Positions 4,447-29,401 of a DNA stretch of 32,000 nucleotides are shown piece after piece. The notes under the pieces were generated by a model that had not been told where the DNA came from, made no database searches, and saw only the letters and a list, made by a program, of their open reading frames with translations. Made by a program: the position numbers and the translations under genes. Origin of the DNA: Desulfobacterales bacterium (GTDB lineage: Bacteria; Desulfobacterota; Desulfobacteria; Desulfobacterales; JAHEIW01); contig JASFNW010000017.1 in assembly GCA_050116835.1 (NCBI GenBank), positions 1 to 32,000 of the forward strand, given 5' to 3'. Position 1 is the stretch's first letter; each line of letters begins with the position of its first letter.

Positions 4447-4635
4447 TTTCACGCCTTTCATCATAGTCACAAATTTTTGGTGAAATGATCGAGGATCCTC
4501 ATTTTTGACCAGACCATTTCAAACGCTGCCGATTCATGGGCACGGAAAGTTAAAGTCTCCCGTCTTCAAAAAATTTTAAAACAATTACAGACAGCTAAAA
4601 TATTGATGGCCCTGGATTGTGCCCATTTTTATGCC
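4447..4635. repeat. dispersed ~190-bp element, copy X1
   Basis: It aligns with 7485-7673 in the same orientation. Shared blocks are AAATTTTTGGTGAAATGATCGAGG (identical 24-mer, 4471-4494), GCTGCCGATTCATGGGCACGG, CTTCAAAA.AATTT and ATTGTGCCC. Confidence 0.65.
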
Positions 4636-7484: not shown

Positions 7485-7673
7485 TTTTCACCTTCCAGCA
7501 TCATCATAAATTTTTGGTGAAATGATCGAGGCTTCTCAGAAGTTACCAGACAAGTTTAAGTGCTGCCGCATTCATGGGCACGGGGATTGAAAATTTCCCT
7601 GCCTTCAAAAGAATTTCGTCTTCTATTATTAGGTTATACTGACACCCAATGTGAATTGTGCCCGCCTTTGGAC
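7485..7673. repeat. dispersed ~190-bp element, copy X2
   Basis: See X1. The identical 24-mer is at 7508-7531, and GCTGCCGCATTCATGGGCACGG is at 7562-7583. It lies in an 825-bp ORF-poor gap (7089-7913). Confidence 0.65.
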
Positions 7674-7913
7674 CCTTTTAAATATGATTTTCAACCCTTT
7701 TCCCGATTTTTTTCTAAGTTTTAGCAGATTTTGAAAATTTTTCTCGCACGAATTCTCACACAACTGAAACCCATTTTCACACATTTTTGCTTAAATCCAC
7801 CCTACCCTTATTTTGCCGTTTATACATTACCACCCATATTTGTAAAAGTTTAGTGAATTTACGGTTCAGGATGCCGACATCGGATCCAACAACATTGAAG
7901 GTAAAATTTTCGG

Positions 7914-9023
7914 CTATTCCCAATTGTTTTGAATGGCATAATCAATAAGATCATTTACCATGGGTTCAGTGATTGGCGGAATTTTAAAATGAGGTAATGC
8001 GCTGTCCGTATGGGCACGATCGAAAACAGGGTTGTTTGCCAGGTGATACCGGAGGATTTGCATCTGACGCCAGACCATTCCTTCTATTTTGTTGCGCGGT
8101 TTGATAGGGACATCAGGCCCTGCAAGCTTAATTCCATTCAAATTAAATTTTCGGTGAATGAGGTCGAGGGTCCATTTATGCTGCGGAGGGTTGGGATGGG
8201 TGAGGTGAAATATTTTTCTGTGATGATCGGGATTTTCTATAATGCGAACAACTGCTCCGGCGACGTAATCCACCGGTATAATATTGGCGCTGCCATCTGG
8301 ATCTGCAGGCACCTGAATTGAAAGGTGATGTCGCTCTGAAAGTGGCGCATCACGGAGTAGTCTGTCAAGCAAATGAGCTGCTTTAAACAAAATATACCAA
8401 CCGGTAAATGATGTGCACCGTGCGGTTTGAGAATCGCCGATAATAATGCTCGGGCGGAAGATGGTTGCCTTTTCCATCCAGATTTGTTCGGCCTCCCATT
8501 TGCTTTCTTCATATACGGTGACAAAATCCGGATGTGGTTGATTTTGTTCATAAATTTTGCTGCCCCGCACCAGTCCGCAGACATAAGCGCTGCTGATCAG
8601 ATGAAAACTGAATGGCCTACGCTGCGCCAGTCCCATCAAAGCTCGGGCACTACCCAGGTTGGTTTTAAGCGGCTCCCCGTTTTCATCCAAGTGCAGCCGT
8701 GTGGAAGCCGCATTATGAAGTACAGTGTCCACTTCAGAGAGGTCCTTGTGCTGTTTACACCAAAGTTCCCATTCAGCGTCAATATCCAGCACATCGCCTT
8801 TGCACCAGAACAAACTGTTCACTGCTTTCGGGAGTCCGATAGTACTCAGAAAGCGGAGGGTTGAAAGTTTGCGTGGCTCTTTTCTGTATAGCGCCCAGAC
8901 CTTGTGGCCTCTTTGCAATAGATTAGCGAGAATATATTCGCCTAAAAATCCAGTGGCTCCGGTCAAAAATACGTTCATGGATTCATTCCAGATAGGTTCA
9001 TTGAAGCAAAGTAATCTTGACAA
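7914..9023 (-). CDS. SDR-family NAD(P)-dependent reductase, thioester-reductase / fatty-acyl-reductase-like
   Basis: It has MNVFLTGATGFLG (Rossmann fold), SSAYV...YEESK (S/YxxxK catalytic set) and a long C-terminal substrate domain. The probable true start is Met16 at 8978. It is divergent from the megasynthase gene. Confidence 0.8.
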   Translation of the reverse strand: MSRLLCFNEPIWNESMNVFLTGATGFLGEYILANLLQRGHKVWALYRKEPRKLSTLRFLSTIGLPKAVNSLFWCKGDVLDIDAEWELWCKQHKDLSEVDTVLHNAASTRLHLDENGEPLKTNLGSARALMGLAQRRPFSFHLISSAYVCGLVRGSKIYEQNQPHPDFVTVYEESKWEAEQIWMEKATIFRPSIIIGDSQTARCTSFTGWYILFKAAHLLDRLLRDAPLSERHHLSIQVPADPDGSANIIPVDYVAGAVVRIIENPDHHRKIFHLTHPNPPQHKWTLDLIHRKFNLNGIKLAGPDVPIKPRNKIEGMVWRQMQILRYHLANNPVFDRAHTDSALPHFKIPPITEPMVNDLIDYAIQNNWE

Positions 9024-9151
9024 AACATATGCTTAACCGTAAAAAAAAGTCATCTGTATCCCATCATTAGCTCCGAAACTTGACTCCGCAGGCCTTGTGC
9101 TTAAACCAAGACTGGAGTGAAAGATATTTGAATATTGTACTCGAATTATGA

Positions 9152-9182
9152 TTGACAATAAAAAACTTCCTTTTTTTATAAT
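9152..9182 (+). promoter_or_regulatory. candidate sigma-70 promoter of the megasynthase gene
   Basis: A perfect TTGACA (9152-9157) and a perfect TATAAT (9177-9182) are present, but with a long 19-bp spacer. The SD GAGGGAG lies 6 nt before the ATG at 9294. Confidence 0.4.
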
Positions 9183-9293
9183 CAAAAAAAACATTTAAGC
9201 AAGATAAGATAATTTGACCGAATCCGACCGTTCGACTCTGACTTATGAATAAAATCCCTCAAAAGGGCTTGGCAATTTAAAAGAGGGAGTCGC

Positions 9294-12200
9294 ATGAAAA
9301 CGGGTTTTAAGCAAACATTTCTTGGGTATTTATGGCCACCTTCTTCGTTCTCACCAACTGTGGCTGACCTCTGCCAGATTGCAAATACGCGCATCATTAT
9401 CGATTTATGTTCAATATCCCTTGAAGATGCAGCAATACTTCTTGCCAGAATTGAAGGCGCCCTAAATAATTTCGATTATAAAATGTCTCCCGCTCAACTA
9501 TTTGATCAATCCTTTGCTAAATGGCTGAGACAATCCGCTGTTGGACGCTTATGGGTCGAAGTCCATCCGTTCGATGGCGTGAATGTCCCCGAAGCCTGCC
9601 TGCAGCAATTATGCACACTCATGCCCAGGTTTACAATTTACCCGATTTTGGGAGACATAAATCTTTTGATGCGGGTGCCTGACAAATTTCCTCAATTTAG
9701 AGCGCTGGTATTGAAAGGATCTGAAGCGTCCGGCTTTGTCAGCGCCGAAAGCACGCAAACACTCTATTTTACTGCCAGAGAAAAAACTCGGATGTCAGAG
9801 TCCCCACCCAGTCTATTTATCTGGGGAGGCATAGCAACTGCAGAGGCTGCGTCCGCTTTCTTTGCAACCGGCGCAAAAGGAATCGTTTTTGAAAGCCTTC
9901 ACTGGTTGACTGATGCAGTTAATCTCAACGATGGGCTGCCAGATAGGATTTCAAAACTTCACCCGGATCACACCGAACTTGTCGGCTTGAATCTTCAGGT
10001 TCCCTGCCGGCTATTTAATAAAGGAAATTCCAAGGCGGTGAAGCGGTTGCAAAGGTTTTCGAGGTCCATTTGCGGCGCTGAAGTTCGCAATGAGCAACGG
10101 CGATTCTTTGCTGACCACATCACCGGGAACAGCATTCAACCGCTGGAGAGCAGTTTCGGCCGGGATGAGCTCATTCCCTTAGGGGTGGAAGCCGGCTTTT
10201 CCAGCTCATTTATAAAGGTATATGGCTGTAATACGCACGTAGCTCTCGAGAAGTTCAGAGATGAAATCAATGCGCGATCTAAAGAAGCAGAACAGAAAAA
10301 ATTCTGTTTTGTCGATAGTCCCGTTGCCAGGGAAATGGGGACTCTATATCCATTTATCCAGGGAGCCATGACATGCATAACAGACGTTCCCGAATTTGCC
10401 AAAAAGGTAGCCGATGCCGGCGGCCTTCCCACAATAGCACTGGGCACAATGAGTCAGCAGATGATCCAAAAGGCCCTGAACAACCTACAAGCTATCATTG
10501 GAGATCGACCTTATGCAGTCAATGTTGTGTGTCTTGCTGAAAACCCTTTCCTGGATGAGCAACTGCAATGGATACTGAAAACCAAGCCGCGTTTTGCGGT
10601 AATTGCAGCCGGTGATCCGATTTACGCCCGTGAAATGTTATCGGCCGGCATACAAGTTATCTATATCGCACCCAACGCTGAGCTGCTCAAACTCGCTTTC
10701 AAAGACGGCGTTCGTATGGTCATCTGCGAAGGTAATGAAGCCGGAGGCCATATCGGTGAATATACCACGTTGACCTTTGCTCAAATTTTACAGGATTTGA
10801 AAAGACGCGATAGGCATCTATTTAACGGCCGCAGATTAATTTTGGCCGGCGGTATTTGCAGCCGCGAAACCGCCTTTATGGCAGCCATGCTCGGCGCAGA
10901 TGCAATACAGATGGGAACTGCATATCTGGGCACCGAAGAAATCGTTACCACAGGAGCCCTCTCTAAGCTTTATCAGCGCATGATTATCTCAACTGGGCCC
11001 GGCGGTACCGTCATAAGCGGCGAGAGCGTCGGGCTGCGGGTAAGATCTTTGAAAACCGAAAAAATCGATGCCATTTGCTCGCTGGAAAGGGATTTCAATG
11101 CCGGTGTCGAAACAGAGGTCTCCTTTCGGGAAAAAATTGAAACACTGGGAGCGGGCAGTTTGCTGATTGCGGCCAGGTGTATGGATCCAGAAAAGGGGGA
11201 CTTTCTTGAAGAAGAGACCTGTCTGAAGCAGGGTCAGTTTATGAGCGGTGCATGTGCCGGCTCGATCCATAAGGTACAAACGATAAATAAGCTTCACCAG
11301 GATCTTGCCCAGGGTCCATGGCCGGACGACTTGCCGGTCTCAACATCATTATTCGAACATCACGATGAACAATATGCCCCGGGGAAAAAGGTAAAAAAAC
11401 AGGCAAACCAACCCAAAATTCAGCAGAAGGTGCCCCGGCGGCGGCGCTATGATCGTATTGCCGTCACCGGCATGAGCATTGTCAATTCACTCGGCAACAA
11501 TCCTCTTGAAGTCTGGGAGGCCAGCCAGACATTAAAGAGCGGTGTTGCAGAGGTGCCCCCTTCAAAATGGAACCATGCGCAATTTTATAATCCCAGACCG
11601 AGAACCCCCGAAAAAACCTACTGCAAGGTGGCCGCTTTCATGAACCTGGATATTTCCAGGAAGGAATTGGGAATCCCGCCCCAGGATTTCCGCACCATGA
11701 CAAATGCGACCAAAATCACCCTCTGGTTGGCAAAAAATGCGCTCGCAGATTCAAACATCTTGCAGTCCGACTTACCCCGTGAGCGTATCGGTGTCTTTAT
11801 TTCGCAAAATTCAGGGGAGGCCGCAGCTACGCTGCAGGATATTATTATCCGTGGCAGTACACGCCAACTTGTGTCTGCCATTAAACACACCATCCCGCTG
11901 AACTCAGATGCGGAACGAGCAATCACAGCGGCGATTACCTCCGGTCGTTTGGCCGTTGACGATACCACCCTCCTGGGACGTTTAAACTGCACCGCAGCAG
12001 GTTTTATCTGCAATACCTATGGCTTCCAGGGCCCCAGCTTTGCCGTCTCCGCTGCCTGTGCCACTTCGCTGGTCGCCCTTTTCAGTGCGTACCACATGAT
12101 CCGCAACGGAGTGCTGGACGCCGCTCTGGTCGGCGGCGCGGAGGAACTGTTGACCCCGATGCATTTTCTGGAATTTTCCGCCCTCGCTGCCCTTGCCGGC

Positions 12201-15200
12201 CTTTCGGGGGTCAGAAGACCTGCGGATCAGGTAAGCCGGCCTTTTGATGTCGGACGCGACGGAATGGTCCTTGGCGAAGGCGGCGGCATGATTGTTATCG
12301 AAAGAGAATCGACAGCGCGCAAGCGGCCTTGCGCCGTGCATGGTTTCATCACCTCGATGGGCGCCAGCAACAATCACCTGGGAATGGTCGAATCATCCCG
12401 TTTGACCCAGGAAATAGCCATTCGGGCTTCTTTTGACGATGCAGATTATGGGCCGGATGACGTCGATCTGATTGAATGCCACGCCACCTCAACCATTCAG
12501 GGTGACATTGAAGAGGTCAAAGCGCTGAGCGCACATTACCAAAGCGGTTCCGGTACCGTGCTGTCATCATTTAAATCCCAAATCGGCCATACTTTAGGAG
12601 CATCTGGAATCAACAGCCTCATCAGGGCTCTAATGGCTGCAAAATCAGGCATCTTCCCGCCAACCCTAAATTGCAACACCCCGGATCCGCAAGTCGGTCT
12701 GCTAGAAGCAGGATTTGCAGTTCATACCGTACCGGAAAAGTGGACAGTCCGTAATAGCGGCTATCGAAGATTTCAGGTGAATTCCTTCGGTTTCGGTGGT
12801 TCCAATTATGTGCTCCAAGTCGAGCAGCCGGTAGAAAGCCGCGACAATGTTCCGATTATGCAGCAGGCACAGCAGAAGGTTTTGATTAAACCCGGATTAG
12901 AAGTTTACCCTCCGCAAGGATTATCCTGCTATCGCATAAACATTGGAAATCAGCCTTACCGAATGGGAATTGCTGCCGAAAGCAAAGACGAAGTCCGGAC
13001 AATGATTAAAAATTTGACATCGGGGAAAATCGAAACGCGTTTATCTGCACGAAAAATTCGGTCTCTGGCCGGAAATGGCGTTTATCTCGGAGCAGAAGCC
13101 GGCGACACGCCACCCGTGGCTTTGGTATTCCCCGGGCAGGGGGCCCACTATGGAGGCATGGGATATGAGCTGTATCGGGATTTTCACGAAATTCGCAAAT
13201 ATATGGATCTCATGGCACAAATTGCAGATTATGATCTGTTGAAAGTACTCTTTCACCATCGCGAGGAGGATTTACAACATACCCGCTGGCAACAACCCGC
13301 CCTGTTTGTCCTGGAATATGCCATGGCTCAGTGTCTATCCTCATATGGCATCCGCCCCGCCGCTGTCGCGGGTCACAGTTTGGGAGAACTAACAGCTTTG
13401 TGCCTTGCGGGGGTTTTCACTGCGGAAGATGGATTTCGTATTGTCGACAAGCGCGCGGAATGCATGGCCAACGCCGGAAAACATCATAAAGATCCGGGTA
13501 TCATGGTGGCCACAAATGCACCTTTGGATCATATTGAAAATCAATGCCACCTATATGATGATATCTATATCACCAATATCAATTCGCCACAGCAGATCGT
13601 TTTTGGTGGTGCCAGCAAAACCTGTCGAGAATTAAGCCATGAATTGAAGAAAAACGGGTTTCGTTGCACAAAGCTGAATGTCGGCATGGCCTTCCATTCA
13701 CCATTGATGGCATGCATCCGTAAAGATCTGGAAAAGTTTATCTCCCACATCGAGTTTCATAAACCGCAGATACCCGTCATTTCAAACACCACGATGCGTC
13801 CGTATCCGGATGATCCGGATGAAATCCGCGGCATCCTGATGGCCCATCTGGAATCACCGGTTCATTGGATGCAAAACATCAAAGCGCTCCGGGACCGATT
13901 CAATATACGCTGTTTTGTAGAGGTTGGCCCTCGAGACATCCTATGTAATCTCATCACTGACACCCTACCCGATGCCCGATGCTTGCCAACCTGCCTGCCC
14001 ACAGTGGAAGCGTATTTATTTAAGACCGCGCTGGCACAACTATTCGCCGCCGGATTGCTGCCGGCCATTAAAGGCGCGGAAGGGTTCTCACTTATCGAAT
14101 CCAAACCGCCTCAGCAGCCTGCCGTAAATCATAAGATCACTGATCCGGCTTCGTTATCTAAACAGAAAACGCCACTTCAAAATTTATCTTTAATTGAAAG
14201 TATAATTCAGAGCCAGATTAACGCGTTTGTGATAGAAAGCTTCGGGCAATTTCTAAAACCCAGGATTCTCGGCATCATTCGTGATCGCGTTGATGCGAAC
14301 TTTACTGAGGCACAGCTGGATGAGGTCCTTGAGCAATCGAATTTTCAAAAGGCAGGATTGATGCCGGAATATCCTAGCCGGGATGAGGGACGTAAAGATA
14401 TATCGACGGATGCTGATGAGAGATCGTTATACAGTGACAATGGACAATCGGGCGATTTCATCGAATCTGTCATTCGAATTATTATGGAGGCCACCGGCTA
14501 CGATCGCGAAGAAATCGAACCCGAAATGAATTTACGTGAGGATCTATCCATACGCTCAAGCCGCCTTCCCGTCATTCTGGATGCCATTGAACAACAATAT
14601 GGGCAAATCGTAGATTTTCAGTCATTCGCGGAAGTCCAAACGGTAAAGGATTTGGCCGAACGTCTATCCGAAATACTTTCGAAAAAAAACGATAGATCTT
14701 CTGAAAGCCGGGTAGAACATTTGCGCGAGCAAAAACCGGTCTGTTCAGATAAACATATCGAATCAGGAGAAAAGACCGTTCCGATCAAGAGATTTCTTTT
14801 CAAAGAAATCCCCATTGCAAAAAACGAATACCGCCCTGTGCAGCTGGAACCATCAGAGAACATTGTCATCCTCTCGCAGAACCATGAGTCATTTTTAGCT
14901 TCCGAGGCGGCAACGATATTACGTCGGGATTACGGAGTTAGTCCGATTCAAATCCCATTTTTGGTACAGAAGAATTCGTCTGCCAGGGAAAATTACAACT
15001 TGTTGGCGGCTGAAGATCATCGGCCCTTTGCCGACCGTCTCAGGCAAACCGACGGGTTGGCGGGCATGGTGATTACCATGGATGATTTAATTCCAAAACA
15101 GCCTCTCGATGTTACTGACGCATCGGTGGTATGCCAGGGCTTTTTGGAAGCTGTGAAAGCATTTTTTAAATCTGCTTCAAAAAAGTTTTTCATTGTTATT

Positions 15201-17207
15201 CACCGCAGAAAACTCGACGATCGCATTAATATTATCATGGCTGAGGCCTTGCGAGGGATGCAATTAAGCCTGACTCATGAGTTGCCGGGCGTTTTGTTGC
15301 GATCAATAGAGCTTCGGGATGAAACCCCGCTGCGCATAGCGCTGAGGAAGGCATTGGATCAAAACCAACCTATTATCGAGACAATTTTTATCGACAACCA
15401 ACCGTATACCCGCGAGGCCAATGTGGCGCCCCTAAAATTTAAGGCGGGCACTGTAAATGAATTTAAAGAAGGAGATGTTGTGGTTTTCTCAGGCGGCGGC
15501 TATGGCGTCACATCTTATCTTGCCCGACCATTAATCTCCGCCGGATGTCGCATAGTATTACTGGGTAGAACCCAAATTGATATTAACTCCTCGGACAAAC
15601 GGTTAAACCAGGCCCCGGAGAATTCAAATAAAGTCATCGACACATTAGAAGCGTTCAAGCGCATGGGTGCTCACGCAATCTATTTTAGCTGCGATATCAC
15701 CGACCCTGACGCAACCCGCCGCCGTCTTTCTGAAATAAAAGAAAAGTTCGGCAGGATTGACGGCATTATCCACGGAGCCGGTGTTGTGTGCGATAAACCC
15801 GTTCATGAAATGACCGGCGATGATTTTGATCGGGTTTTCAGCGTAAAAGTTCATGGTGCTTGGAATCTGTTTAATGCAGCTGATCAACATGGTTTGAAAT
15901 GCTTTGTTTGTCTGTCATCAGCGGCTGCTGTCTTTGGCAATCACGGCCAGGTTAATTACGCGGCGGCAAACCGGGCCATGTCTGCACTGATGCCCTATTT
16001 TCAGGGAAGAAATGATTCTCTATTCTGCAAGACTCTGATTTTGCCGCCCATCGAAGGCGCCGGAATGGCCGACAAGTCTGATGTCAAAGCGATATTAAAA
16101 AGATCAGGGGTACACTACGTCACAACCGATGAACTGGCTTCGCTTTTTTCCCGTGAAATGCACTTCGGAAGTCGAGAAGATATGTCGGTAATGTATATGC
16201 GTTCGCTGCCAGCGGTAAACACTGTCAGCATGAAACCGGAAAAAGCGTTTCCAAAAAGGGAATCGATTTCTGCGGGTGCAATGGATTTTTATAAATCCGA
16301 TTTTCCAATGATCGATGGTATTCAGCAGATTGACCTTGACCGGGGAAAATTGATTGCTAAACACATTTTTTCGCATGAAAAAGATCTGTGGCTTGCCGAT
16401 CACAAGCCATTTAAGGCACTCAACCATCCCATCGTGTCGGCCATCATGGTTATTGAAACCTTCATGGAGGCCGCCAAGATTCTGTATCCTCATTTGCGCA
16501 TCAAAAGCGTCAGGAATGCAGAATTTCTGAGCATTTTATCCTGTCCCACGAATATGACACGGGCATCACAAATTATTTGCCGCTCCGTCCAATCTTACGG
16601 TCCTGAAATCGTCTGCAATCTGACATTGAAAGCACCCGGGATCGCACAAAAAGACCACATGCGGAAAAATGGTAAGGTTCACTACCGGGCCGAGCTTGTT
16701 ATGGGAATTGATCAGGCTGTTGTCGGAAATCCTACAGGGCGTTTTCCGATCAACCCGGAGGAGATTGCGACGCGGCCGATGAAAAGAGATGAAATTTTAG
16801 AAAAATATCAACAAAAAACCGACATGCAAACACGTTATCGATTAATGGAGGCATTTGACGGTTCCGGTGAAGGAGTTATCCGGGGGCATTTCATCTATAA
16901 GCAATATACGGATTTCAATAATCAGCACAAATCCAATTATCAATATTCACCATATCTTCTGGAAGCCTTGCTGCAAGCTGTCAATTTTTATATCTTCATG
17001 AAGGACGAGATGGAACAGCGTCCTATGATTCCGCGTAGCATCGGCCAGATGGTGCCGGTGCGAAAATGTCAGGAAAGTGAGATAATAACTGTGGAAGCGC
17101 GCATAGATGATCTCGACAAGGACAGAATCATCTGGAACGCACGGGCAATCGACCGAAATATGCGTCCAATCATGTACGTCGAAAAATTGGAAATGAACTG
17201 GTTTTAA
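9294..17207 (+). CDS. 2637-aa type I FAS/PKS-like megasynthase with domain order NMO-like(degenerate)-NMO-type ER-KS-AT-ACP-KR-DH (PfaD+PfaA-like)
   Basis: The ER has YPFIQGAMT, EGNEAGGH (His at 10749), LILAGGI and GADAIQMGTAYL. The KS has AACATS (Cys at 12057), ECHATST and SQIGHT. The AT has FPGQGAHY, GHSLGE (Ser at 13377) and MAFHS. The ACP has EDLSIRSSRL (Ser at 14556). The KR has FSGGGYGVT and SSAAAVFGNHGQVNYAAAN. The PS-type DH has LADHKPFKALNHP (His at 16401). Confidence 0.9.
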   Translation: MKTGFKQTFLGYLWPPSSFSPTVADLCQIANTRIIIDLCSISLEDAAILLARIEGALNNFDYKMSPAQLFDQSFAKWLRQSAVGRLWVEVHPFDGVNVPEACLQQLCTLMPRFTIYPILGDINLLMRVPDKFPQFRALVLKGSEASGFVSAESTQTLYFTAREKTRMSESPPSLFIWGGIATAEAASAFFATGAKGIVFESLHWLTDAVNLNDGLPDRISKLHPDHTELVGLNLQVPCRLFNKGNSKAVKRLQRFSRSICGAEVRNEQRRFFADHITGNSIQPLESSFGRDELIPLGVEAGFSSSFIKVYGCNTHVALEKFRDEINARSKEAEQKKFCFVDSPVAREMGTLYPFIQGAMTCITDVPEFAKKVADAGGLPTIALGTMSQQMIQKALNNLQAIIGDRPYAVNVVCLAENPFLDEQLQWILKTKPRFAVIAAGDPIYAREMLSAGIQVIYIAPNAELLKLAFKDGVRMVICEGNEAGGHIGEYTTLTFAQILQDLKRRDRHLFNGRRLILAGGICSRETAFMAAMLGADAIQMGTAYLGTEEIVTTGALSKLYQRMIISTGPGGTVISGESVGLRVRSLKTEKIDAICSLERDFNAGVETEVSFREKIETLGAGSLLIAARCMDPEKGDFLEEETCLKQGQFMSGACAGSIHKVQTINKLHQDLAQGPWPDDLPVSTSLFEHHDEQYAPGKKVKKQANQPKIQQKVPRRRRYDRIAVTGMSIVNSLGNNPLEVWEASQTLKSGVAEVPPSKWNHAQFYNPRPRTPEKTYCKVAAFMNLDISRKELGIPPQDFRTMTNATKITLWLAKNALADSNILQSDLPRERIGVFISQNSGEAAATLQDIIIRGSTRQLVSAIKHTIPLNSDAERAITAAITSGRLAVDDTTLLGRLNCTAAGFICNTYGFQGPSFAVSAACATSLVALFSAYHMIRNGVLDAALVGGAEELLTPMHFLEFSALAALAGLSGVRRPADQVSRPFDVGRDGMVLGEGGGMIVIERESTARKRPCAVHGFITSMGASNNHLGMVESSRLTQEIAIRASFDDADYGPDDVDLIECHATSTIQGDIEEVKALSAHYQSGSGTVLSSFKSQIGHTLGASGINSLIRALMAAKSGIFPPTLNCNTPDPQVGLLEAGFAVHTVPEKWTVRNSGYRRFQVNSFGFGGSNYVLQVEQPVESRDNVPIMQQAQQKVLIKPGLEVYPPQGLSCYRINIGNQPYRMGIAAESKDEVRTMIKNLTSGKIETRLSARKIRSLAGNGVYLGAEAGDTPPVALVFPGQGAHYGGMGYELYRDFHEIRKYMDLMAQIADYDLLKVLFHHREEDLQHTRWQQPALFVLEYAMAQCLSSYGIRPAAVAGHSLGELTALCLAGVFTAEDGFRIVDKRAECMANAGKHHKDPGIMVATNAPLDHIENQCHLYDDIYITNINSPQQIVFGGASKTCRELSHELKKNGFRCTKLNVGMAFHSPLMACIRKDLEKFISHIEFHKPQIPVISNTTMRPYPDDPDEIRGILMAHLESPVHWMQNIKALRDRFNIRCFVEVGPRDILCNLITDTLPDARCLPTCLPTVEAYLFKTALAQLFAAGLLPAIKGAEGFSLIESKPPQQPAVNHKITDPASLSKQKTPLQNLSLIESIIQSQINAFVIESFGQFLKPRILGIIRDRVDANFTEAQLDEVLEQSNFQKAGLMPEYPSRDEGRKDISTDADERSLYSDNGQSGDFIESVIRIIMEATGYDREEIEPEMNLREDLSIRSSRLPVILDAIEQQYGQIVDFQSFAEVQTVKDLAERLSEILSKKNDRSSESRVEHLREQKPVCSDKHIESGEKTVPIKRFLFKEIPIAKNEYRPVQLEPSENIVILSQNHESFLASEAATILRRDYGVSPIQIPFLVQKNSSARENYNLLAAEDHRPFADRLRQTDGLAGMVITMDDLIPKQPLDVTDASVVCQGFLEAVKAFFKSASKKFFIVIHRRKLDDRINIIMAEALRGMQLSLTHELPGVLLRSIELRDETPLRIALRKALDQNQPIIETIFIDNQPYTREANVAPLKFKAGTVNEFKEGDVVVFSGGGYGVTSYLARPLISAGCRIVLLGRTQIDINSSDKRLNQAPENSNKVIDTLEAFKRMGAHAIYFSCDITDPDATRRRLSEIKEKFGRIDGIIHGAGVVCDKPVHEMTGDDFDRVFSVKVHGAWNLFNAADQHGLKCFVCLSSAAAVFGNHGQVNYAAANRAMSALMPYFQGRNDSLFCKTLILPPIEGAGMADKSDVKAILKRSGVHYVTTDELASLFSREMHFGSREDMSVMYMRSLPAVNTVSMKPEKAFPKRESISAGAMDFYKSDFPMIDGIQQIDLDRGKLIAKHIFSHEKDLWLADHKPFKALNHPIVSAIMVIETFMEAAKILYPHLRIKSVRNAEFLSILSCPTNMTRASQIICRSVQSYGPEIVCNLTLKAPGIAQKDHMRKNGKVHYRAELVMGIDQAVVGNPTGRFPINPEEIATRPMKRDEILEKYQQKTDMQTRYRLMEAFDGSGEGVIRGHFIYKQYTDFNNQHKSNYQYSPYLLEALLQAVNFYIFMKDEMEQRPMIPRSIGQMVPVRKCQESEIITVEARIDDLDKDRIIWNARAIDRNMRPIMYVEKLEMNWF

Positions 17208-17253
17208 AGAGTTCGCAAGAATCCATTGTAAGCCTACAATTGAATTTAACTCA

Positions 17254-18096
17254 ATGAATGTTGACTATCAAAGCAAAATTCAGGCAAGCGGGAGAGAATC
17301 ATCCGATCGAAAAGTTTTACACAAGGAATGTTCGATGTATCTAAAGCCTGTTCATATTCCTAAAAGCCGTAAAGCCCCTTTGGCTTCGAACCAAACCCCC
17401 ACCGGGTTTTCAAAAATCAATAAAAATATCATATTCGCTTCCTGTTTATGGGACAAACTTCAGACAGCAGCAGATGCCCGCAGACAGGCCAAAAACATGC
17501 TGATTGAATTATTGTTAAAGGAGGGCAGGCATATACTGCCGTGGGCTGATAGCGGACTGAAAAAACAGAGTGCCTCCAGGCATTCAGCATTCATTGTCGT
17601 CAGCAACCGATTCGGACAGCCGCTGTTGCGAATAAACGGTAGCAGGGGTCCTTCGCTTTCCTTTGCCCATATACCGGGCAGAACCTGTGCGGCAATGTCG
17701 CTTTGCAGCGACGATGTGGGCATTGATGTTGCCAGCAGTAAGGATTTTTTCGATGGCTATCCCCTTCAACGTGTTTTCCATCAGGATGAGTTTCAAGCCA
17801 CGATGAAATTATTTGGAAGGTATGAAAACGCAGCCGCCGCTTTGTGGTCCGTTAAGGAGGCAGCGGTTAAATCTCTGGGGTGCGGTTATCGTTTTTTTGC
17901 TCCCATCGACCTAAAAGTCAGGATTGATTTCGAATTTACCGGTGAAGATAAGATTTATGTGGTTTTTTCTGATTATGCAAGGCATCGAATCGGCTTGGCG
18001 AAAAAAAAAGTCCATCGTGTACACCTTTTTCGTCGCGGCACTCTTTTTTTGTCGGTAGCTTTGGCTGGCTCATCAAAAAAATGCAAATCCAAATAA
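17254..18096 (+). CDS. 4'-phosphopantetheinyl transferase (Sfp/PfaE-like)
   Basis: VGIDV and WSVKEAAVKSLG motifs are present. The likely start is Met28 at 17335, preceded by AAGGAA. The last 6-7 codons lie inside the 18073-18166 repeat. Confidence 0.8.
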   Translation: MNVDYQSKIQASGRESSDRKVLHKECSMYLKPVHIPKSRKAPLASNQTPTGFSKINKNIIFASCLWDKLQTAADARRQAKNMLIELLLKEGRHILPWADSGLKKQSASRHSAFIVVSNRFGQPLLRINGSRGPSLSFAHIPGRTCAAMSLCSDDVGIDVASSKDFFDGYPLQRVFHQDEFQATMKLFGRYENAAAALWSVKEAAVKSLGCGYRFFAPIDLKVRIDFEFTGEDKIYVVFSDYARHRIGLAKKKVHRVHLFRRGTLFLSVALAGSSKKCKSK

Positions 18097-18166
18097 AAAA
18101 GGAAGTTAGGCGAATCGCTGAACTTCCTTTTTTATGGTGCCGAGGGACAGAATCGAACTGCCGACA
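18073..18166. repeat. direct repeat, copy 1 (partner 21119-21210)
   Basis: The 86-nt core 18081-18166 matches 21125-21210 at 84 of 86 positions. It covers the PPTase 3' end, the terminator hairpin and the first 32 nt of the tRNA-Phe 3' fragment. Confidence 0.85.
18095..18133. terminator. bidirectional rho-independent terminator
   Basis: AAAAAAGGAAGTT-(13-nt loop)-AACTTCCTTTTTT has A/T runs on both sides. It lies directly after the PPTase stop. Confidence 0.75.
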
Positions 18167-18179
18167 CGGGGATTTTCAG
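18135..18179 (-). other. perfect 45-nt copy of the tRNA-Phe 3' half (anticodon loop to CCA); att-like remnant
   Basis: TGGTGCCGAGGGACAGAATCGAACTGCCGACACGGGGATTTTCAG is identical to 23016-23060 of the intact tRNA. Homology stops at the anticodon-loop boundary. Confidence 0.85.
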
Positions 18180-18328
18180 ACCAAATTTTTGAAAATTTAA
18201 AAAATACTGTGATTACAACCAGTTGATTCTAGTTCAATTTTTCGTTGTATTTTTGGTTTCGTTTGGAATTTTTTGGAAATATTTGACCTTGACGGGCACA
18301 ATTTGGGCACAGTCCTTAAATAAAAACC

Positions 18329-18499: not shown

Positions 18500-19840
18500 T
18501 TAATCGAGGCGTCGGATACGGGGACTCAGAAACAGGTAGTACAGTGTTATGAGCCCCAGCAGGCCTGCGGAGCCGCCCACAGCCAATTGGACGCCGACGC
18601 GATCGGCCAGGATGCTGACGAAGAAAACGCCTACCATCGTAATGCCCCAGTTCATCATGTACACGCTCATGACCCGCCCCTGATGAGATTCATCGGTGTT
18701 GGACAACAGCAAGGTGTTGCTCAATGCCAGCCGGCCGGCCTGGCCCAGGCCCATTGCGATAAAGATGAACACCGCCAGCAGGTAGGATCCGGTCGCGCTG
18801 AAGGCCACCAGGGAGACGGCCGCTAAAAGCAGGCTGAGCAGAAAGATCAGGCCGCGTTTGCGATTGCGCATGGAAGCCACAACCAGAGAGCCTACTAGAG
18901 CCCCCAGACCGGATACGCTGATCAAAAGCCCCTGCCGGGCGCTGGACTCTCCCAGGGCCAGAAGCAGGGAGCCGATCAGAGGCAGGGAGGTTAGTCGCCC
19001 AAAAACCGATACATCCACCAGCAAAATGTCCCGCGTAAACATTGGCAGCAAAAACAGGTAAGGCATGGAAAGAACCGTGGCCAGGAGTGTCAGCACCAGT
19101 AAAGCCAGCACGTCGGCATTATGCCGGATGTAGCGCAGCCCCTCGGTGAGATCCTGGATGGTGCTGCTTTCCCGAGGGCGATCCCTGCCGGTGCGGGGAA
19201 GCCGAACAGCGAACATAAAACCGACGGCGTACAGTGCGGTCATGATATAGTAAACGCTTTCGACGCCCCCGAAGGCAATTAAGAAACCGGCAAATGCCGG
19301 TGCTGCCAGACGGATGAAATTCATTGCCGCCGCGTTGAGCGCGATGGCGTTCATCAGGGTGTCTCTGCCGACCAGTTCATAAATGAGCGCCTGCCTGGCC
19401 GGCATCATCAGGGCCATAACCAACCCCTGAAAAAAAGCGGCCATAAAAAGATGAACCCAGGAAATGGCGCCCGCCGTAATGGAAATCGCAACCCCCATAG
19501 CCACCAGGGCCGAGGCGAGTTGACCGGCAACCAGAATGCTCTTTTTTCTGATGCGGTCCGCCAGAATGCCGCCGAACAGGGAAACGGTCAGCATGGGCAC
19601 TGCAGCGCCAAGCCCCACCGTCCCGAGCATGACGGCACTCCCGGTCAATTCGTACATATACCAGGATCGCGCCACCATCTGCATGTTCATGGCGGTTATC
19701 TGCATCAACAGCGCACCGAAAAATATCCGGTAGGCAGGCAATGTCAATGCGGCAAAAGTCTTCTGCCGATGCTGCCGATTATCCCGGCCCGATTCAGGGA
19801 GTGAAGCAGCCCTGGTAGGCCGCGCGGAACTCTTATTCAT
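18500..19840 (-). CDS. MFS transporter (EntS/MFS_3-like)
   Basis: It has 12-TM hydrophobicity and a GGILADRIRKKS loop motif. By eye it is visibly more GC-rich than its neighbours. Confidence 0.85.
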   Translation of the reverse strand: MNKSSARPTRAASLPESGRDNRQHRQKTFAALTLPAYRIFFGALLMQITAMNMQMVARSWYMYELTGSAVMLGTVGLGAAVPMLTVSLFGGILADRIRKKSILVAGQLASALVAMGVAISITAGAISWVHLFMAAFFQGLVMALMMPARQALIYELVGRDTLMNAIALNAAAMNFIRLAAPAFAGFLIAFGGVESVYYIMTALYAVGFMFAVRLPRTGRDRPRESSTIQDLTEGLRYIRHNADVLALLVLTLLATVLSMPYLFLLPMFTRDILLVDVSVFGRLTSLPLIGSLLLALGESSARQGLLISVSGLGALVGSLVVASMRNRKRGLIFLLSLLLAAVSLVAFSATGSYLLAVFIFIAMGLGQAGRLALSNTLLLSNTDESHQGRVMSVYMMNWGITMVGVFFVSILADRVGVQLAVGGSAGLLGLITLYYLFLSPRIRRLD

Positions 19841-19979
19841 CTCGGAAATATTTCCTTGCCGGATTCATGGGAAATGTTCGGTCTCTCTATAAAACGGGAC
19901 AAGGCGGGCCCGCTCTATGCACAATTTTTTCCTCTAAATTCACCCCTGTCACCCTGCCCTTCACAAAAATCTTACCGAC

Positions 19980-20972
19980 TCAGGGCTTGAAACCTTCGAC
20001 CAGGGAAAACATGCCCTTGGTCTGTATCAAATTGATCCGTCTGAATCCCACCGCTGTCAGGCCTTCTTTGATTTCATCAAAAGTGTAGGTGCGGCCCCCT
20101 TCCGTGCCGGCCAGCATGTTCACCGCAAAAAGAGCGCCTTGCAGCGGCTGGGTGCGATCCGCCGACATGACATGATCGCGAATCACAATCCGACCCCCCG
20201 CGTTCAGGGAGCGGTATACTTTGCCGTACAGAGCTTCGTTTTGCTCAGAACTGCTTTGGTGGATGATGGCCGATAATAGGGCCAGGTCATGTCCGGGAGG
20301 CAATTCGTCCTTGTAAAAATCTCCGGCCACCAACTCGACACGGTCGAGCATATTGGCGGATTGCACGCGATCATGAGCTATTTCGATGACCGGCGGCAGG
20401 TCGAACAAAGTCCCCCTCATTTCGGGTTTTGCGCTGAGCATTGCCAGGGTGTAAGTTCCGGATCCGCCGCCCACGTCCAGCAGCCGGCGAGCCTTTCCCG
20501 GATTGATAGCAGCCACAACCTCCGGCGCGGCTCTGGAAGCGACCACGTGCATGGCACCGATAAAGGCTTTGCAGTTGCCCTCGGCCAAGGCGCCTTTCGT
20601 TTTAAGTCTCGGCGTGGTCTTGCCCAGCACAATGTCCGTTATTTGAGACCAGTTTTGCCACACCGAAGCCATGTGCAGAACCATGGGCAGAATGGAATCG
20701 GACGCGGTAGCCGACAGGAGGGAAGCACCCGACGGCGCAACCTGGTACCGTCTGTCTTTTTTCTCCAAAAAACCAAGGGCACTTAAGGCGTCCAGAAGGA
20801 TCTCTATCCCGCGAATCTCGGTCTTGGTTGTGGCTGCAATTTCCTCCGCCGTCATGGGCTCTTGGGAAAGTAAGGTGAAAAGATCCAGTTCTGCGCCGCT
20901 GAGCAGTATCCGACTGGCCATAAAACCGCGGGCCAGTTCAACGATTGATTCTTCCGTGATCTTTGCGCTCAT
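19980..20972 (-). CDS. class I SAM-dependent O-methyltransferase with an N-terminal winged-helix dimerisation domain
   Basis: The SAM motif LLDVGGGSGTYT is present. The overall layout resembles the Methyltransf_2 (plant/bacterial OMT) family. A tandem AGGAGG SD precedes the ATG. Confidence 0.8.
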   Translation of the reverse strand: MSAKITEESIVELARGFMASRILLSGAELDLFTLLSQEPMTAEEIAATTKTEIRGIEILLDALSALGFLEKKDRRYQVAPSGASLLSATASDSILPMVLHMASVWQNWSQITDIVLGKTTPRLKTKGALAEGNCKAFIGAMHVVASRAAPEVVAAINPGKARRLLDVGGGSGTYTLAMLSAKPEMRGTLFDLPPVIEIAHDRVQSANMLDRVELVAGDFYKDELPPGHDLALLSAIIHQSSSEQNEALYGKVYRSLNAGGRIVIRDHVMSADRTQPLQGALFAVNMLAGTEGGRTYTFDEIKEGLTAVGFRRINLIQTKGMFSLVEGFKP

Positions 20973-21118
20973 TTTAATCCTCCTTTAATTCCTCCTTCGC
21001 CACGCTGTTGCGACAGGCCTTGCAATCGGTCCAAGCCAAAGAAAAATCCATCTGTCATCCCTGTATCGTCTTTGTTTTACTAACCTACTAAAAACATTTG
21101 CACATGTATTTATCATAT

Positions 21119-21210
21119 TCAAAAATGCAAATCCAAATAAAAAAGGAAGCTAGGCGAATCGCTGAACTTCCTTTTTTATGGTGCCGCGGGACAGAATCGA
21201 ACTGCCGACA
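21119..21210. repeat. direct repeat, copy 2 (includes terminator hairpin 21139-21177 and a 32-nt tRNA-Phe 3' fragment at 21179-21210 with 1 mismatch)
   Basis: See 18073-18166. The tRNA part TGGTGCCGcGGGACAGAATCGAACTGCCGACA ends at the variable-loop region. Confidence 0.85.
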
Positions 21211-21292
21211 GCCCATTAATGTGCCTTTACATCCGTGAACCCGGTCGCGTCGTTTTTTTCTACCCTCCGCAGATGGGCCCTCATTTGGCGAA

Positions 21293-22630
21293 TTAAGGCT
21301 TATCGATGATCTCTATCTGTTTAGGACTATTAAGAACTATTTCAGGCCTCCCCCTGAATTTTTTAATTTTTCCTTTTACACGGACAAATTTGTTCAGGTA
21401 GAATTTTTCAGGTTTTTCCGGAAACCGATGAAAAACATTGTCGAATATAACAAGACTACAAAAACGGGCCCAATTATTGTGAAAGTTTAAAAAACAGGCT
21501 TTCCCGGAATTGTGGGTTCGGACAATCCTACCTTCAACAGACATATATTTTCCGATATAATTCTCAGCCAGATCCCATGGAATTATATCTTCACCTGTGG
21601 CCCTGACTTTATAAATTGTCAAAAATGACCTGGCGATCTTCTTTTGCTCTACAGAATTTATGGATCTTTCTGGAATTAATCGGTATTGACTTTTTAATAA
21701 AATATTCCTCAACGCTTCCTCATTGTCCGTGTTGATCAACGCGGAAAGGCTTTTTAATTTCGCACCAAGCTTCCCGGGTAATACACGCGGTAACGCATAG
21801 TTTTTATGTATGATTCCCCATCTATGGTATGCCATTGCGATGACAAATATATCACTCCGATCATTGCGTGTGATCAGTTTATCTTTATATCGCAGTTGTT
21901 TTAGTTTGGCCTGAAGCTCTCTTGGACTGAATTCATAAATCATGGAATAAAGCTGTTTGAGACGGTTTTCTATATCACGGTAATGTACCGGTTTTAAAAT
22001 CCAATTTCCGAATGCTATTTTCCATCTGTCTGCTGATAATCTTGTGAGTTGCAATAGTGGCTGTTTTTGCTTCAGAATCCATCGAACTTCAGGAAATCCA
22101 TCGTCTTTCCACAACCCGATTCTCCTTTTTTTCGCCTCCTGTTCCCATGCCAAAAACTGGGTCTTTCTGCGCTCATCCAATGGATATTTTGTATAGGCAA
22201 TTGCATAGCCGTTTTTAATCAGTTCTTCCTGCAAAAAGGTGCCGTCTTCAAGGTAAACGTAACCCAACACACGCCCATAATTTCCACGCTTGTCTGAATC
22301 ATAAGGATCGTATTCCACACGAACTTTTTTGCCCAGACAGATTTCCTCTGTAAAAGCACCGGCTTCCTTGGACATGAATTGAACTGGCAATTTGGGATGA
22401 TTCTTTTCGGGTGTATCAACCCCGATAAATCGCACGGTCCCCAGACCTTCCAACGTCAATGTGTCTCCGTCGGCAACAGATATGCACCTGTGATATTCTC
22501 TGTCTAATCCGAGGTTTTTAAGTAACTTGTCTGTAACCGGAGCTGGAATATCATTGGCTGAGGAATCAGAAAATAGAAGTACGAGCGACAATATGAGTGG
22601 AAATAAAGAAAAGGATATAAATCTGTGCAT
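21293..22630 (-). CDS. secreted thermonuclease (SNase)-domain protein with a C-terminal OB-fold-like domain
   Basis: A signal peptide (MHRFISFSLFPLILSLVLLFSDSSA) is present. SNase motifs are GDTLTL, VRFIGVDTPE and YGRVLGYVY...EELIKNGYA. The C-terminus (YMSVEGRIV...FVRVKGKIKKFRGRPEI) is OB-fold-like. The gene is visibly AT-rich. Confidence 0.8.
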   Translation of the reverse strand: MHRFISFSLFPLILSLVLLFSDSSANDIPAPVTDKLLKNLGLDREYHRCISVADGDTLTLEGLGTVRFIGVDTPEKNHPKLPVQFMSKEAGAFTEEICLGKKVRVEYDPYDSDKRGNYGRVLGYVYLEDGTFLQEELIKNGYAIAYTKYPLDERRKTQFLAWEQEAKKRRIGLWKDDGFPEVRWILKQKQPLLQLTRLSADRWKIAFGNWILKPVHYRDIENRLKQLYSMIYEFSPRELQAKLKQLRYKDKLITRNDRSDIFVIAMAYHRWGIIHKNYALPRVLPGKLGAKLKSLSALINTDNEEALRNILLKSQYRLIPERSINSVEQKKIARSFLTIYKVRATGEDIIPWDLAENYIGKYMSVEGRIVRTHNSGKACFLNFHNNWARFCSLVIFDNVFHRFPEKPEKFYLNKFVRVKGKIKKFRGRPEIVLNSPKQIEIIDKP

Positions 22631-23015
22631 TGAAGGATCTTAAACCGCCTTCGGCGGTCCAATATGCCTGAGGCTGCAAGCTGTCGACATTAGAATTTTC
22701 AGTTAGTAAATGCCGGGATCATTTAATATTATTTGGGTTTAAAATTATATTTAACCCGGCAATTTTTTCTTTGGGAATATTAATCTTGGCTTTACCCATA
22801 GTTGTTCGACCACTTGTTATTTCTATTAAGATATCTTAAAAAATAGTAAATTGAAAAATTCTTGCAAATTATCATGTAATCCTAATGTGTTATCGTACAA
22901 TTGGCACATATGAATGTCAAGTTTAGGATATCTGCACCATAGAATTATCCACCTAGCGATTGAATGCAAGACCGTAAAAAAAGGATACCGGACTTTAGCC
23001 TGATACCCTTTTTAG

Positions 23016-23091
23016 TTGGTGCCGAGGGACAGAATCGAACTGCCGACACGGGGATTTTCAGTCCCCTGCTCTACCGACTGAGCTACCTCGG
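23016..23091 (-). tRNA. tRNA-Phe (anticodon GAA), CCA encoded
   Basis: The reverse complement is GCCGAGGTAGCTCAGTCGGTAGAGCAGGGGACTGAAAATCCCCGTGTCGGCAGTTCGATTCTGTCCCTCGGCACCA. It folds as a cloverleaf with anticodon loop CUGAAAA. Confidence 0.95.
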
Positions 23092-23170
23092 CTCACGGAA
23101 TCCCATTGATTTTTAAGCTTAAATTAGAATGAAAGCTCTATAAAATGCATCTTTCTTTGTCAAGATATTT

Positions 23171-28429: not shown

Positions 28430-29401
28430 ATGATACCATTACGCGATACAACACCCACCCGAAATTATCCGATTGTCAACACGACGATAATTGCTATCAA
28501 TGTTGCAGTGTATTTTATACAGCTATCTCAGGGCCCTGAAATTAACCGCTTCATTTACGTTTACGGCCTGGTGCCGGCACGCTACTCACTTCCCCAGGTT
28601 GCCGACTATTTCACCGTCGGCCAGCAGGCATTTTCGTTTTTGTCTTTCATGTTTTTGCATGGAAGTTTCTGGCATATCCTCGGCAACATGTGGTCCCTTT
28701 ATATTTTCGGCGATAACGTCGAAGACCATCTCGGTCCCGTCCGCTATGCTCTGTTTTATTTATTGTGTGGGATCGCTTCGGGACTTTCACATCTGGTGCT
28801 GAACCTGCATTCGAATTCGCCGACCATCGGAGCCAGCGGCGCTATTGCCGGAGTGATGGGGGCTTATTTTATCCTGCATCCCCGATCAAAAATTTTGACC
28901 CTGATTCCCATCATTTTCATCCCCTATTTTATTAATATCCCGGCCTATATCTTTTTGGGTCTGTGGTTCCTGTTGCAATTCATTAATGCGGCCGGCAGCC
29001 ACGGTGTTGGCGGGGGCATTGCCTGGTGGGCCCATATCGGCGGTTTTATCTTCGGCATCATTTTCTTGAAGCTGTTGGATCTACTGCCGGTAACGGGTGT
29101 GTCGCGGCTGATGCGTCAGTATACCACCAAAAGGAAAACACCCCGCCTGCAGGTCATCCGACCGGCAGCTTCCGGTGCGGCCCAGCACTTGTACGGTCAG
29201 ATCAAGATTAGCCCTCATGAGGCCAGGACCGGCACCCGCAAAATGGTCAATATTCCGCTGGGTTTTAAAAAGAGACTGTTCAACGTAAAAGTGCCGGCCG
29301 GTATCCGTGACGGAACCGTTCTTAGGTTAAAAGGCCTGGGACGGCCTTCCGGCACACGCACAAGCGGGGATCTGTATCTAAAAGTCTCAATCGAAACATA
29401 G
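28430..29401 (+). CDS. rhomboid-family intramembrane serine protease fused to a DnaJ C-terminal-like domain
   Basis: Rhomboid motifs are FLHGSFWHILGNM, GASGAIAGVMG and AHIGGFIFG. The C-terminal ~70 aa (KISPHEARTGTRKMVNIP...VKVPAGIRDGTVLRLKGLGRP...SGDLYLKVSI) match the DnaJ/CbpA CTD pattern. Confidence 0.8.
   Translation: MIPLRDTTPTRNYPIVNTTIIAINVAVYFIQLSQGPEINRFIYVYGLVPARYSLPQVADYFTVGQQAFSFLSFMFLHGSFWHILGNMWSLYIFGDNVEDHLGPVRYALFYLLCGIASGLSHLVLNLHSNSPTIGASGAIAGVMGAYFILHPRSKILTLIPIIFIPYFINIPAYIFLGLWFLLQFINAAGSHGVGGGIAWWAHIGGFIFGIIFLKLLDLLPVTGVSRLMRQYTTKRKTPRLQVIRPAASGAAQHLYGQIKISPHEARTGTRKMVNIPLGFKKRLFNVKVPAGIRDGTVLRLKGLGRPSGTRTSGDLYLKVSIET

Follow-up and report, generated by a model that had tools for sequence, protein, structure and literature searches.

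Single polypeptides with the domain order ER-KS-MAT-ACP(1-3)-KR (enoyl reductase, ketosynthase, malonyl acyltransferase, acyl carrier protein, ketoreductase) were listed in 2011 by Shulse & Allen as types M–P, and ArsA of Azotobacter vinelandii is among them (PMC3098273 File S1). ArsA makes C23–C25 fatty acids, which the type III polyketide synthases (PKSs) ArsB and ArsC turn into the alkylresorcinols of the cyst (PMC4824345). A fusion of pfaD and pfaA has been remarked in Ottowia (PMC13291983). In the zeamine pathway of Serratia plymuthica, a stand-alone NADH-dependent thioester reductase, Zmn14, frees the chain from a PfaA-like ACP and is also able to reduce aldehydes to alcohols (PMC5811116). 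Here we describe a three-gene unit at positions 7914–18096 of a stretch of DNA from a Desulfobacterales bacterium (contig JASFNW010000017.1; the whole stretch analysed, 32,000 nucleotides, is called the window). The unit is compact (10.4 kb) and consists of a divergently transcribed NAD_binding_4 reductase of the short-chain dehydrogenase/reductase (SDR) superfamily, a 2637-aa synthase and a 4'-phosphopantetheinyl transferase (PPTase). Domain identities, intact catalytic residues, gene linkage and co-transfer point to a self-contained, horizontally mobile unit for a specialised lipid, in which a saturated chain would be built iteratively from malonyl units and then released reductively; we hold the chances of this reading to be about even.

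Both the ER-fused single-chain architecture and stand-alone reductive release have precedents; the clade to which the synthase belongs is itself uncharacterised. An earlier interpretation made from the DNA letters alone (the sequence-only reading) could name no characterised cluster with this architecture; it is nevertheless not unprecedented, since ER-KS-MAT-ACP-KR chains, including ArsA, were already known as types M–P (PMC3098273). What is new here is the combination of a fused dehydratase (DH), a free PPTase and a reductase partner on an already known plan of ER-fused iterative synthases for secondary lipids.

Judged from its sequence, the window family shares with the ArsA type both the domain inventory and the odd N-terminus, and differs from that type in the three features just named. 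Common to both are a cryptic TIM barrel, a FabK-like ER, KS, malonyl-specific acyltransferase (AT), ACP and KR in the same unusual order, the lack of a thioesterase and a dedicated PPTase encoded nearby. The type P synthase of Beijerinckia indica (2674 aa) is collinear with residues 139–1588 of the window synthase, from the N-terminal barrel (N1, see below) through the AT, at 28% identity, and the KR domains share 25%. Unlike the window protein, it contains two ACPs and no domain beyond the KR. The Beijerinckia DH (PF14765) resides on a 629-aa ArsD-like PPTase protein, together with PF01648, whereas the window DH forms the C-terminus of the synthase and the PPTase is a separate protein of 280 aa. 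Two type III PKS genes follow the Beijerinckia synthase; the window has none, and the partner is instead a thioester-reductase-like SDR. In types M–O the separate protein is a KS-AT-PPTase; the window PPTase has the ACPS domain only. Synthases of the ArsA type are expected to make saturated acyl chains of C22–C26 that remain attached to the ACP. Type S of the same survey, from D. autotrophicum, was considered as a match and rejected; its order is ER-KS-CLF-AT-KS-ACP3-KR (CLF, chain length factor).

The sequence-only reading had described the synthase as a fusion of PfaD and PfaA. The part that stands is a complete reducing loop with a single ACP in one chain: the KS-AT-ACP-KR-DH order is that of PfaA (PMC13291983), the ER belongs to the NMO superfamily and an Sfp-type PPTase lies in the cluster. 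The part that has to be given up is the assignment of the ER, which is FabK-like and not PfaD-type. The synthase also differs from the Pfa system in having one ACP, compared with four or more in PfaA, and an extra N1 barrel; its score against the PfaA model TIGR02813 is 446.8 bits, under the cut-off of 1010.1. PfaB, PfaC (KS-CLF, FabA-type DH) and a thioesterase are absent from the 19 Pfam-scanned open reading frames (ORFs) of the 32-kb window, in agreement with the earlier interpretation. The zeamine system (Zmn10–14) resembles the unit in pairing a PfaA-like iterative synthase with a stand-alone reductase, a likeness drawn from the published description of Zmn14. Separate PfaC- and PfaD-like proteins, an aminotransferase domain, a further KR and a partner line of nonribosomal peptide synthetase and PKS modules belong to the zeamine system and are absent from the window. 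The heterocyst glycolipid (Hgl) synthase is divided among separate HglE (KS-MAT-ACP2-KR), KS/CLF-AT, ER and ACP-release proteins, in contrast to the one fused chain without a CLF in the window, and the window reductase lacks the ACP of the Hgl ACP-release protein. Metagenome mining has reported clusters named 'heterocyst glycolipid synthase-like PKS' in Desulfobacterota with no product (PMC11051675), which may or may not be of the window family.

Domains and catalytic residues of the synthase

The synthase gene (9294–17207, + strand) encodes an iterative type I fatty acid synthase (FAS)/PKS-like megasynthase of 2637 aa with the order N1-ER-KS-AT-ACP-KR-DH. Domains were called from Pfam and NCBIfam scans, and residue conservation was assessed in 26 full-length homologues. 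Together with profile–profile alignment (hhalign) and structure models, these scans bear out the two TIM-barrel modules, KS, AT, single ACP, KR and DH that had been read from the ORF.

The ER (aa 346–673; 10329–11312, +) is an FMN-type, FabK-like enoyl reductase. PF03060 matches it with an E-value of 2.9e-20 (the Pfam NMO match covers aa 350–596), so the predicted N-terminal NMO-type reductase is present. Its best NCBIfam model is FabK (TIGR03151, 4e-41), and a sequence search of the PDB returned FabK (7l00) at E 4.9e-29 and PfaD (6lkc) at E 0.0083. A PfaD-type ER was rejected because FabK is far closer. The histidine of the EAGGH motif, H486, is conserved. The KS (aa 720–1178; 11451–12827, +) was identified by PF00109 (1e-45) and PF02801 (6e-24), with the Pfam matches spanning aa 720–1127, and its C922, H1063 and H1099 are invariant. 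The malonyl-type AT (aa 1275–1567; 13116–13994, +) matches PF00698 (1.6e-45, aa 1278–1567) and the FabD model TIGR00128 (3e-59); S1362 in GHSLGE, R1387 and H1468 in MAFHS are invariant, and the motifs are FabD-like. The catalytic subdomain of the KR (aa 2057–2260; 15462–16073, +) matches PF08659 (2.7e-37, aa 2064–2238), with K2185, S2208 and Y2222 invariant.

The single ACP (aa 1726–1791; 14469–14666, +) was detected by PF00550 (2.5e-5; 24.9 bits, cut-off 20.8), and this PP-binding match is the only ACP match in the synthase. S1755 and S1756 are both invariant, and phosphopantetheine is probably attached at S1755 of the LSIRSSR motif. Across the family, an Arg takes the place of the usual Asp before the phosphopantetheinylated Ser in this motif (aa 1750–1757, nt 14541–14564).

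The DH at the C-terminus (aa 2325–2637; 16266–17204, +) is of the PKS-type double-hotdog class. Its assignment from the sequence had been offered with an HMM search as the check, and that search gave a divided result: PF14765 scored 21 bits in the whole protein, below the cut-off of 23.7, and 25 bits when the C-terminus was scanned alone (match at aa 2541–2634). A PDB sequence search with the C-terminal 337 aa found no match. The fold supports the assignment. An AlphaFold (AF2) model of the last 340 aa, built from an alignment of 16 family members, is a double hotdog (pLDDT 82, pTM 0.83), and its best PDB matches in Foldseek are the PKS dehydratase domains of PsoA, CurF and MlnB (E 1e-15 to 1e-17). 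H2370, P2379 and E2557 are invariant and Q2561 is nearly so (at least 90%).

N1 (aa 1–345; 9294–10328, +) has no match in Pfam or NCBIfam. Three lines of evidence nevertheless confirm that it is a second TIM barrel, a divergent relative of the FabK-like ER. First, hhalign aligns it with the ER region (E 1.6e-4, probability 50%), placing LKGSEASGF of N1 beneath CEGNEAGGH of the ER, so that Phe148 occupies the position of the catalytic His. Second, the AF2 model (pLDDT 70, pTM 0.76) shows eight beta/alpha units, and FabK provides its best PDB matches (E 5e-7, TM ∼ 0.6). Third, an N1 profile found 428 proteins among 1.84 billion representatives; in the best 150 of these 428, N1 stands at or near the N-terminus of proteins of 2.4–4.0 thousand aa or their fragments, and the profile usually gives an additional, weaker match to the ER of the same protein. 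The N1 motifs FESxHWLTD and PCRLFNKGNS are strongly conserved and the ER histidine is absent; K141, E144, H203, R239 and N245 are among the conserved N1 residues. N1 is most likely a degenerate duplicate of the ER that serves as an in-cis ER partner or a docking surface, not as a second reductase. FabK itself has been described as a dimer.

The exact synthase sequence is recorded for Desulfobacterales metagenome-assembled genomes (MAGs), and the NCBI member of the same cluster is 2574 aa long, 63 aa shorter than our call. The ATG at 9294 is backed by the JGI call, by the homologues and by a good ribosome-binding site (GAGGGAG, 5 nt ahead of the ATG). If the 63 residues lacking in the NCBI copy are N-terminal (window 9294–9482), that copy would lack the opening strands of the N1 barrel. 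NCBI names its copy 'SDR family NAD(P)-dependent oxidoreductase', and several homologues too bear no more than an 'SDR family oxidoreductase' label; this naming and the shortened copy make the family easy to overlook.

Proposed chain release by the reductase partner

The reductase is encoded on the − strand. Its longest ORF (7914–9023) gives 369 aa from a TTG at 9023, but the start is probably the ATG at 8978, as in the calls for relatives, which gives a stand-alone, thioester-reductase-like SDR of 354 aa (7914–8978). PF07993 (NAD_binding_4) matches at 2.7e-28 (99.3 bits, gathering score 20.1), and the protein carries a Rossmann GATGFLG and a catalytic YxxxK as YEESK. Its best relatives in the PDB are the reductase domain of MxaA (4u7w, E 4.6e-11) and the PKS R domain 8v1x. 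Weaker Pfam and NCBIfam matches are to epimerase and HpnA families. The PPTase gene (17254–18096, +; 280 aa) starts 46 nt past the synthase stop. Its product matches PF01648 at 2.1e-9 (37.8 bits, cut-off 25), consists of the ACPS domain only, contains GIDVAS and WSVKEAAVK (the GxD and W/FxxKE(A/S)xxK motifs) and is of the Sfp type, whose usual size is about 230–280 aa. The divergent SDR and the closely following Sfp-type PPTase predicted from the DNA, as well as the thioester-reductase character of the former, are in this way upheld. An ortholog of the reductase lies divergently upstream in relatives (24 of 60 loci, see below). Between reductase and synthase lies a divergent, AT-rich intergenic region (8979–9293), in which a consensus promoter scan gave no more sites than shuffled sequence.

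We propose the following route. The PPTase would convert the single ACP to its holo form at Ser1755. The malonyl-specific AT would load malonyl units, and the KS would extend the ACP-bound chain in the iterative manner of a type I fatty acid synthase. At each cycle the KR, the C-terminal DH and the FabK-like FMN enoyl reductase are predicted to reduce the beta-carbon fully, yielding a saturated and probably long chain. Since there is no thioesterase, we propose that the chain remains on the ACP, from which the divergent SDR could act in trans on the acyl-ACP thioester with NAD(P)H, giving a fatty aldehyde and possibly, in a further step, an alcohol. A precedent in favour of this route is that synthases of the same superfamily pass an ACP-bound chain straight to a partner enzyme (ArsA to ArsB/ArsC, PMC4824345).

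The extent of reduction is where a first alternative arises. Programmed incomplete reduction could leave hydroxy, keto or enoyl groups, comparable to the long-chain diols and keto-ols of heterocyst glycolipids; what the SDR sets free would then be a long-chain alcohol bearing such groups, destined for a surface or barrier lipid. The match of the synthase to the PfaA model (447 bits, below cut-off) is consistent with such a scheme, as is the name 'heterocyst glycolipid synthase-like PKS' given to Desulfobacterota clusters that may belong to this family, and heterocyst glycolipid clusters likewise end in an NAD_binding_4-type release domain. All three reducing domains, on the other hand, retain their catalytic residues, the window contains neither a glycosyltransferase nor a second KS/CLF, and the fusion of the ER in cis would favour its use in every cycle. 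We consider partial reduction unlikely.

Homologous loci in Desulfobacterota

The window locus is no isolated case: its synthase family abounds in Desulfobacterota. When 5.8 billion proteins were searched, the top of the list was filled with full-length homologues (∼ 2650 aa, 46–51% identity, 100% coverage). Two motifs, of which one is generic to ketosynthases, were used to search a set with a single genome for each GTDB species and located 480 stretches encoding relatives, an upper figure for the species concerned. The best 80 of these 480 are 42–55% identical to the window synthase and full length or nearly so where the contigs permit, several being cut by contig ends; nearly all are from Desulfobacterota (Desulfomonile, Syntrophales, Syntrophobacteraceae, Desulfobulbales, Geobacterales, Desulfarculales and others). 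By sequence similarity, the window synthase is placed in a large uncharacterised Desulfobacterota clade, with full-length copies in at least 80 species.

To describe the gene neighbourhoods, flanking ORFs of the homologous loci were clustered, which left 60 informative loci upstream and 59 downstream. A PPTase homolog lies directly downstream of the synthase in 39 of the 59. Upstream, two types of cluster stand out. In the SDR type an ortholog of the window reductase is found within 9 kb of the synthase (24 of 60 loci) and is divergently adjacent in 21 of the 60. The reductase ortholog (55–63% identity) is more conserved than the synthase (42–55%), the divergent spacing is ∼ 200–400 bp across many genera, and the pair is also adjacent in an isolate, Desulfatirhabdium butyrativorans DSM 18734; Desulfomonile MAGs are further examples of the type. 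Downstream, most SDR-type clusters encode a B12/radical-SAM enzyme (15 of 19), a small zinc-ribbon-like protein and a MatE exporter (13 of 19), often with metK/ahcY. The B12-binding radical-SAM enzyme (19125–20708 in locus L038 and its equivalents) follows the PPTase in 28 of 54 loci; it comes closest to TIGR04072, a ladderane-associated 'lipid biosynthesis' family, with 315 bits and a cut-off of 360, and might act, for instance, in methylation of the chain. The window and locus L001 represent the minimal SDR-type cluster, which ends at the PPTase. Locus L085 has the same three genes, on a contig that ends ∼ 0.6 kb after the PPTase.

The second type, which we call U377, comprises 27 of the 60 loci and has a protein of 377 aa and of no recognised function upstream in place of such an SDR. 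Several of these loci encode a serine palmitoyltransferase (NF047600, 597 bits, cut-off 640); further genes are an HpnA-like SDR, PAP2, an ABC exporter and sometimes a sulfotransferase or a FAAL-ACP-aminotransferase. Flanks of the palmitoyltransferase type were seen at L019, L021, L032, L083, L012, L054, L061, L006, L008 and L037. This gene set suggests a sphingolipid-type route, in which the synthase would supply chains specifically for sphingolipid-like lipids of Desulfobacterota, and the 377-aa protein could be an analogue of ceramide synthase. Both cluster types occur together in two MAGs, JAPLJK01 (L009 and L037) and JBMFOE01 (L006 and L064), and the presence of one copy of each suggests specialised, non-housekeeping roles.

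These neighbourhoods bear on a second alternative, in which an acyltransferase, a condensing enzyme or the like, with its gene elsewhere in the genome, takes over the acyl-ACP, and the SDR acts on another substrate or at a later step. Related synthases do pair with type III PKSs, or with serine palmitoyltransferase, an HpnA-like SDR and an ABC exporter; the 27 loci of the U377 type have no such SDR; and the weaker matches of the window SDR to epimerase and HpnA families would suit a different substrate. What speaks against a hand-over elsewhere is that the SDR, synthase and PPTase have been transferred together as an exact block, that the divergent adjacency has been kept in many genera, and that the nearest structural relatives of the SDR are thioester reductases, not sugar epimerases. 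We find this alternative doubtful.

Several observations nevertheless weigh against reductive release of a fully saturated chain as the function of the window unit. The reductase scores 90.6 bits with TIGR01746, under the curated cut-off of 213.35, and is only distantly related to reductases that have been tested experimentally. It is not obligatory for the synthase, as ∼ 45% of the homologous loci carry other partners instead. The B12/radical-SAM enzyme and the MatE exporter of other SDR-type clusters are absent from the window, so that its pathway may be reduced or even incomplete. Skipping of reduction steps by programming remains compatible with the sequence, and full-text literature searches yielded no product or characterisation for any member of the clade.

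A third alternative, that the megasynthase is the main housekeeping fatty acid synthase and replaces or supplements a type II FAS, would make use of its complete reducing loop. Such a role has been proposed for the type S synthase of D. autotrophicum, where fabA and fabZ are missing (PMC3098273), and this proposal is the precedent for a housekeeping reading. The different architecture of type S argues against extending it to the window, as do the unrelated flanks in close relatives and the adjoining tRNA-Phe fragments (see below), the PPTase encoded within the module itself, the genomes with two differently partnered copies and the patchy distribution. We therefore regard a housekeeping role as very improbable.

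With due reserve, we can carry the reading of a specialised lipid further. SDR-type clusters might be the dedicated source of a lipid class of Desulfobacterota, supplying long-chain fatty alcohols or aldehydes for the non-isoprenoid alkyl-glycerol ethers that serve as biomarkers of sulfate reducers, or for barrier lipids similar to heterocyst glycolipids, with N1 as a new architectural element. This extension is speculative and we think it quite unlikely to be right. If it were true, the pseudo-reductase barrel N1 would let a FabK-type ER work within a single megasynthase chain. More generally, one synthase chassis is combined with at least three kinds of off-loading partner: a type III PKS, a serine palmitoyltransferase or a thioester reductase. 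The hosts are among the key anaerobes that live in sediments and aquifers, and ecologically the family is widespread. If this complete, compact and apparently transferable unit does convert malonyl-CoA to a fatty aldehyde or alcohol and release it, it would serve both as a biosynthetic part and as a handle on an unstudied lipid pathway.

Mobility and the tRNA-Phe region

Nucleotide homology of the window to L001 (91%) and L085 (89%) runs from position 7678/7865 to 18089 and the flanks are unrelated, so that the shared block is exactly SDR, synthase and PPTase. The right end of the module is closed by an inverted repeat (18093–18135), a palindromic hairpin with an A-run and a T-run that resembles a bidirectional terminator. 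A simple terminator scan had given nothing above the shuffled background; it overlooked this hairpin because the loop is ∼ 11 nt and the limit of the scan was 8 nt. The hairpin is followed, at the right edge of the module, by a ∼ 46-nt copy of the 3' end of tRNA-Phe (18136–18181, −). The complete tRNA-Phe lies at 23017–23092 (−), and a second partial copy of its 3' end at 21180–21210. The partial copies sit within two direct repeats of 90 nt (18077–18166 and 21121–21210, 98% identical), each of which further takes in the final 20 nt of the PPTase gene and a hairpin. The repeats bracket a segment of 3,044 bp that contains an MFS gene and an O-methyltransferase gene, and the whole pattern suggests successive insertion or recombination events at a tRNA-Phe site.

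The same tRNA recurs in L001 on the reductase side of the module, where tRNA-Phe 3' fragments and an ORF resembling a DUF6538 integrase N-terminus were found (189–370, 1453–2011 and 2137–2181). The shared three-gene block, the unrelated flanks and the tRNA-Phe fragments indicate a tRNA-linked, rearranging region in which the module behaves as a transferable unit. Beyond the fragments in L001 there is a HepT/nucleotidyltransferase toxin–antitoxin pair, which supports an island-like context.

The downstream MFS and O-methyltransferase genes were considered as further members of the cluster. This was not supported, as they are inside the repeat-bracketed segment and absent from L001, although their membership is possible. 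An O-methyltransferase (44% identity) and a neighbour of the SNase family occur beside the synthase cluster in the window (19980–22630), in L007 (4695–6865) and in L073 (5951–8343); the side of the cluster that they occupy varies from genome to genome. Their proximity may reflect conserved local synteny or an accessory function. For the O-methyltransferase, local synteny is favoured over membership in the pathway because its homologues near L007 and L073 travel with the SNase gene. In the window, an SNase-OB gene is located between the second partial tRNA-Phe copy and the complete tRNA (22959–23092 region).

Other repeats and one unusual gene lie outside the module. To its left, a direct repeat of ∼ 119 nt (4454–4572 and 7491–7610, 73–78% identical) brackets a BCCT transporter gene, with a spacing (3,037 bp) oddly close to the distance between the right-hand 90-nt repeats. 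Two pairs of short direct repeats (1688–1726/2348–2386 and 1749–1775/2826–2852, 90–93% identical) flank a gene for a Rieske protein and contain CAGGAT-type sub-repeats. In an ORF at 28430–29401, a rhomboid protease domain is joined to a DnaJ C-terminal domain, an unusual pairing.

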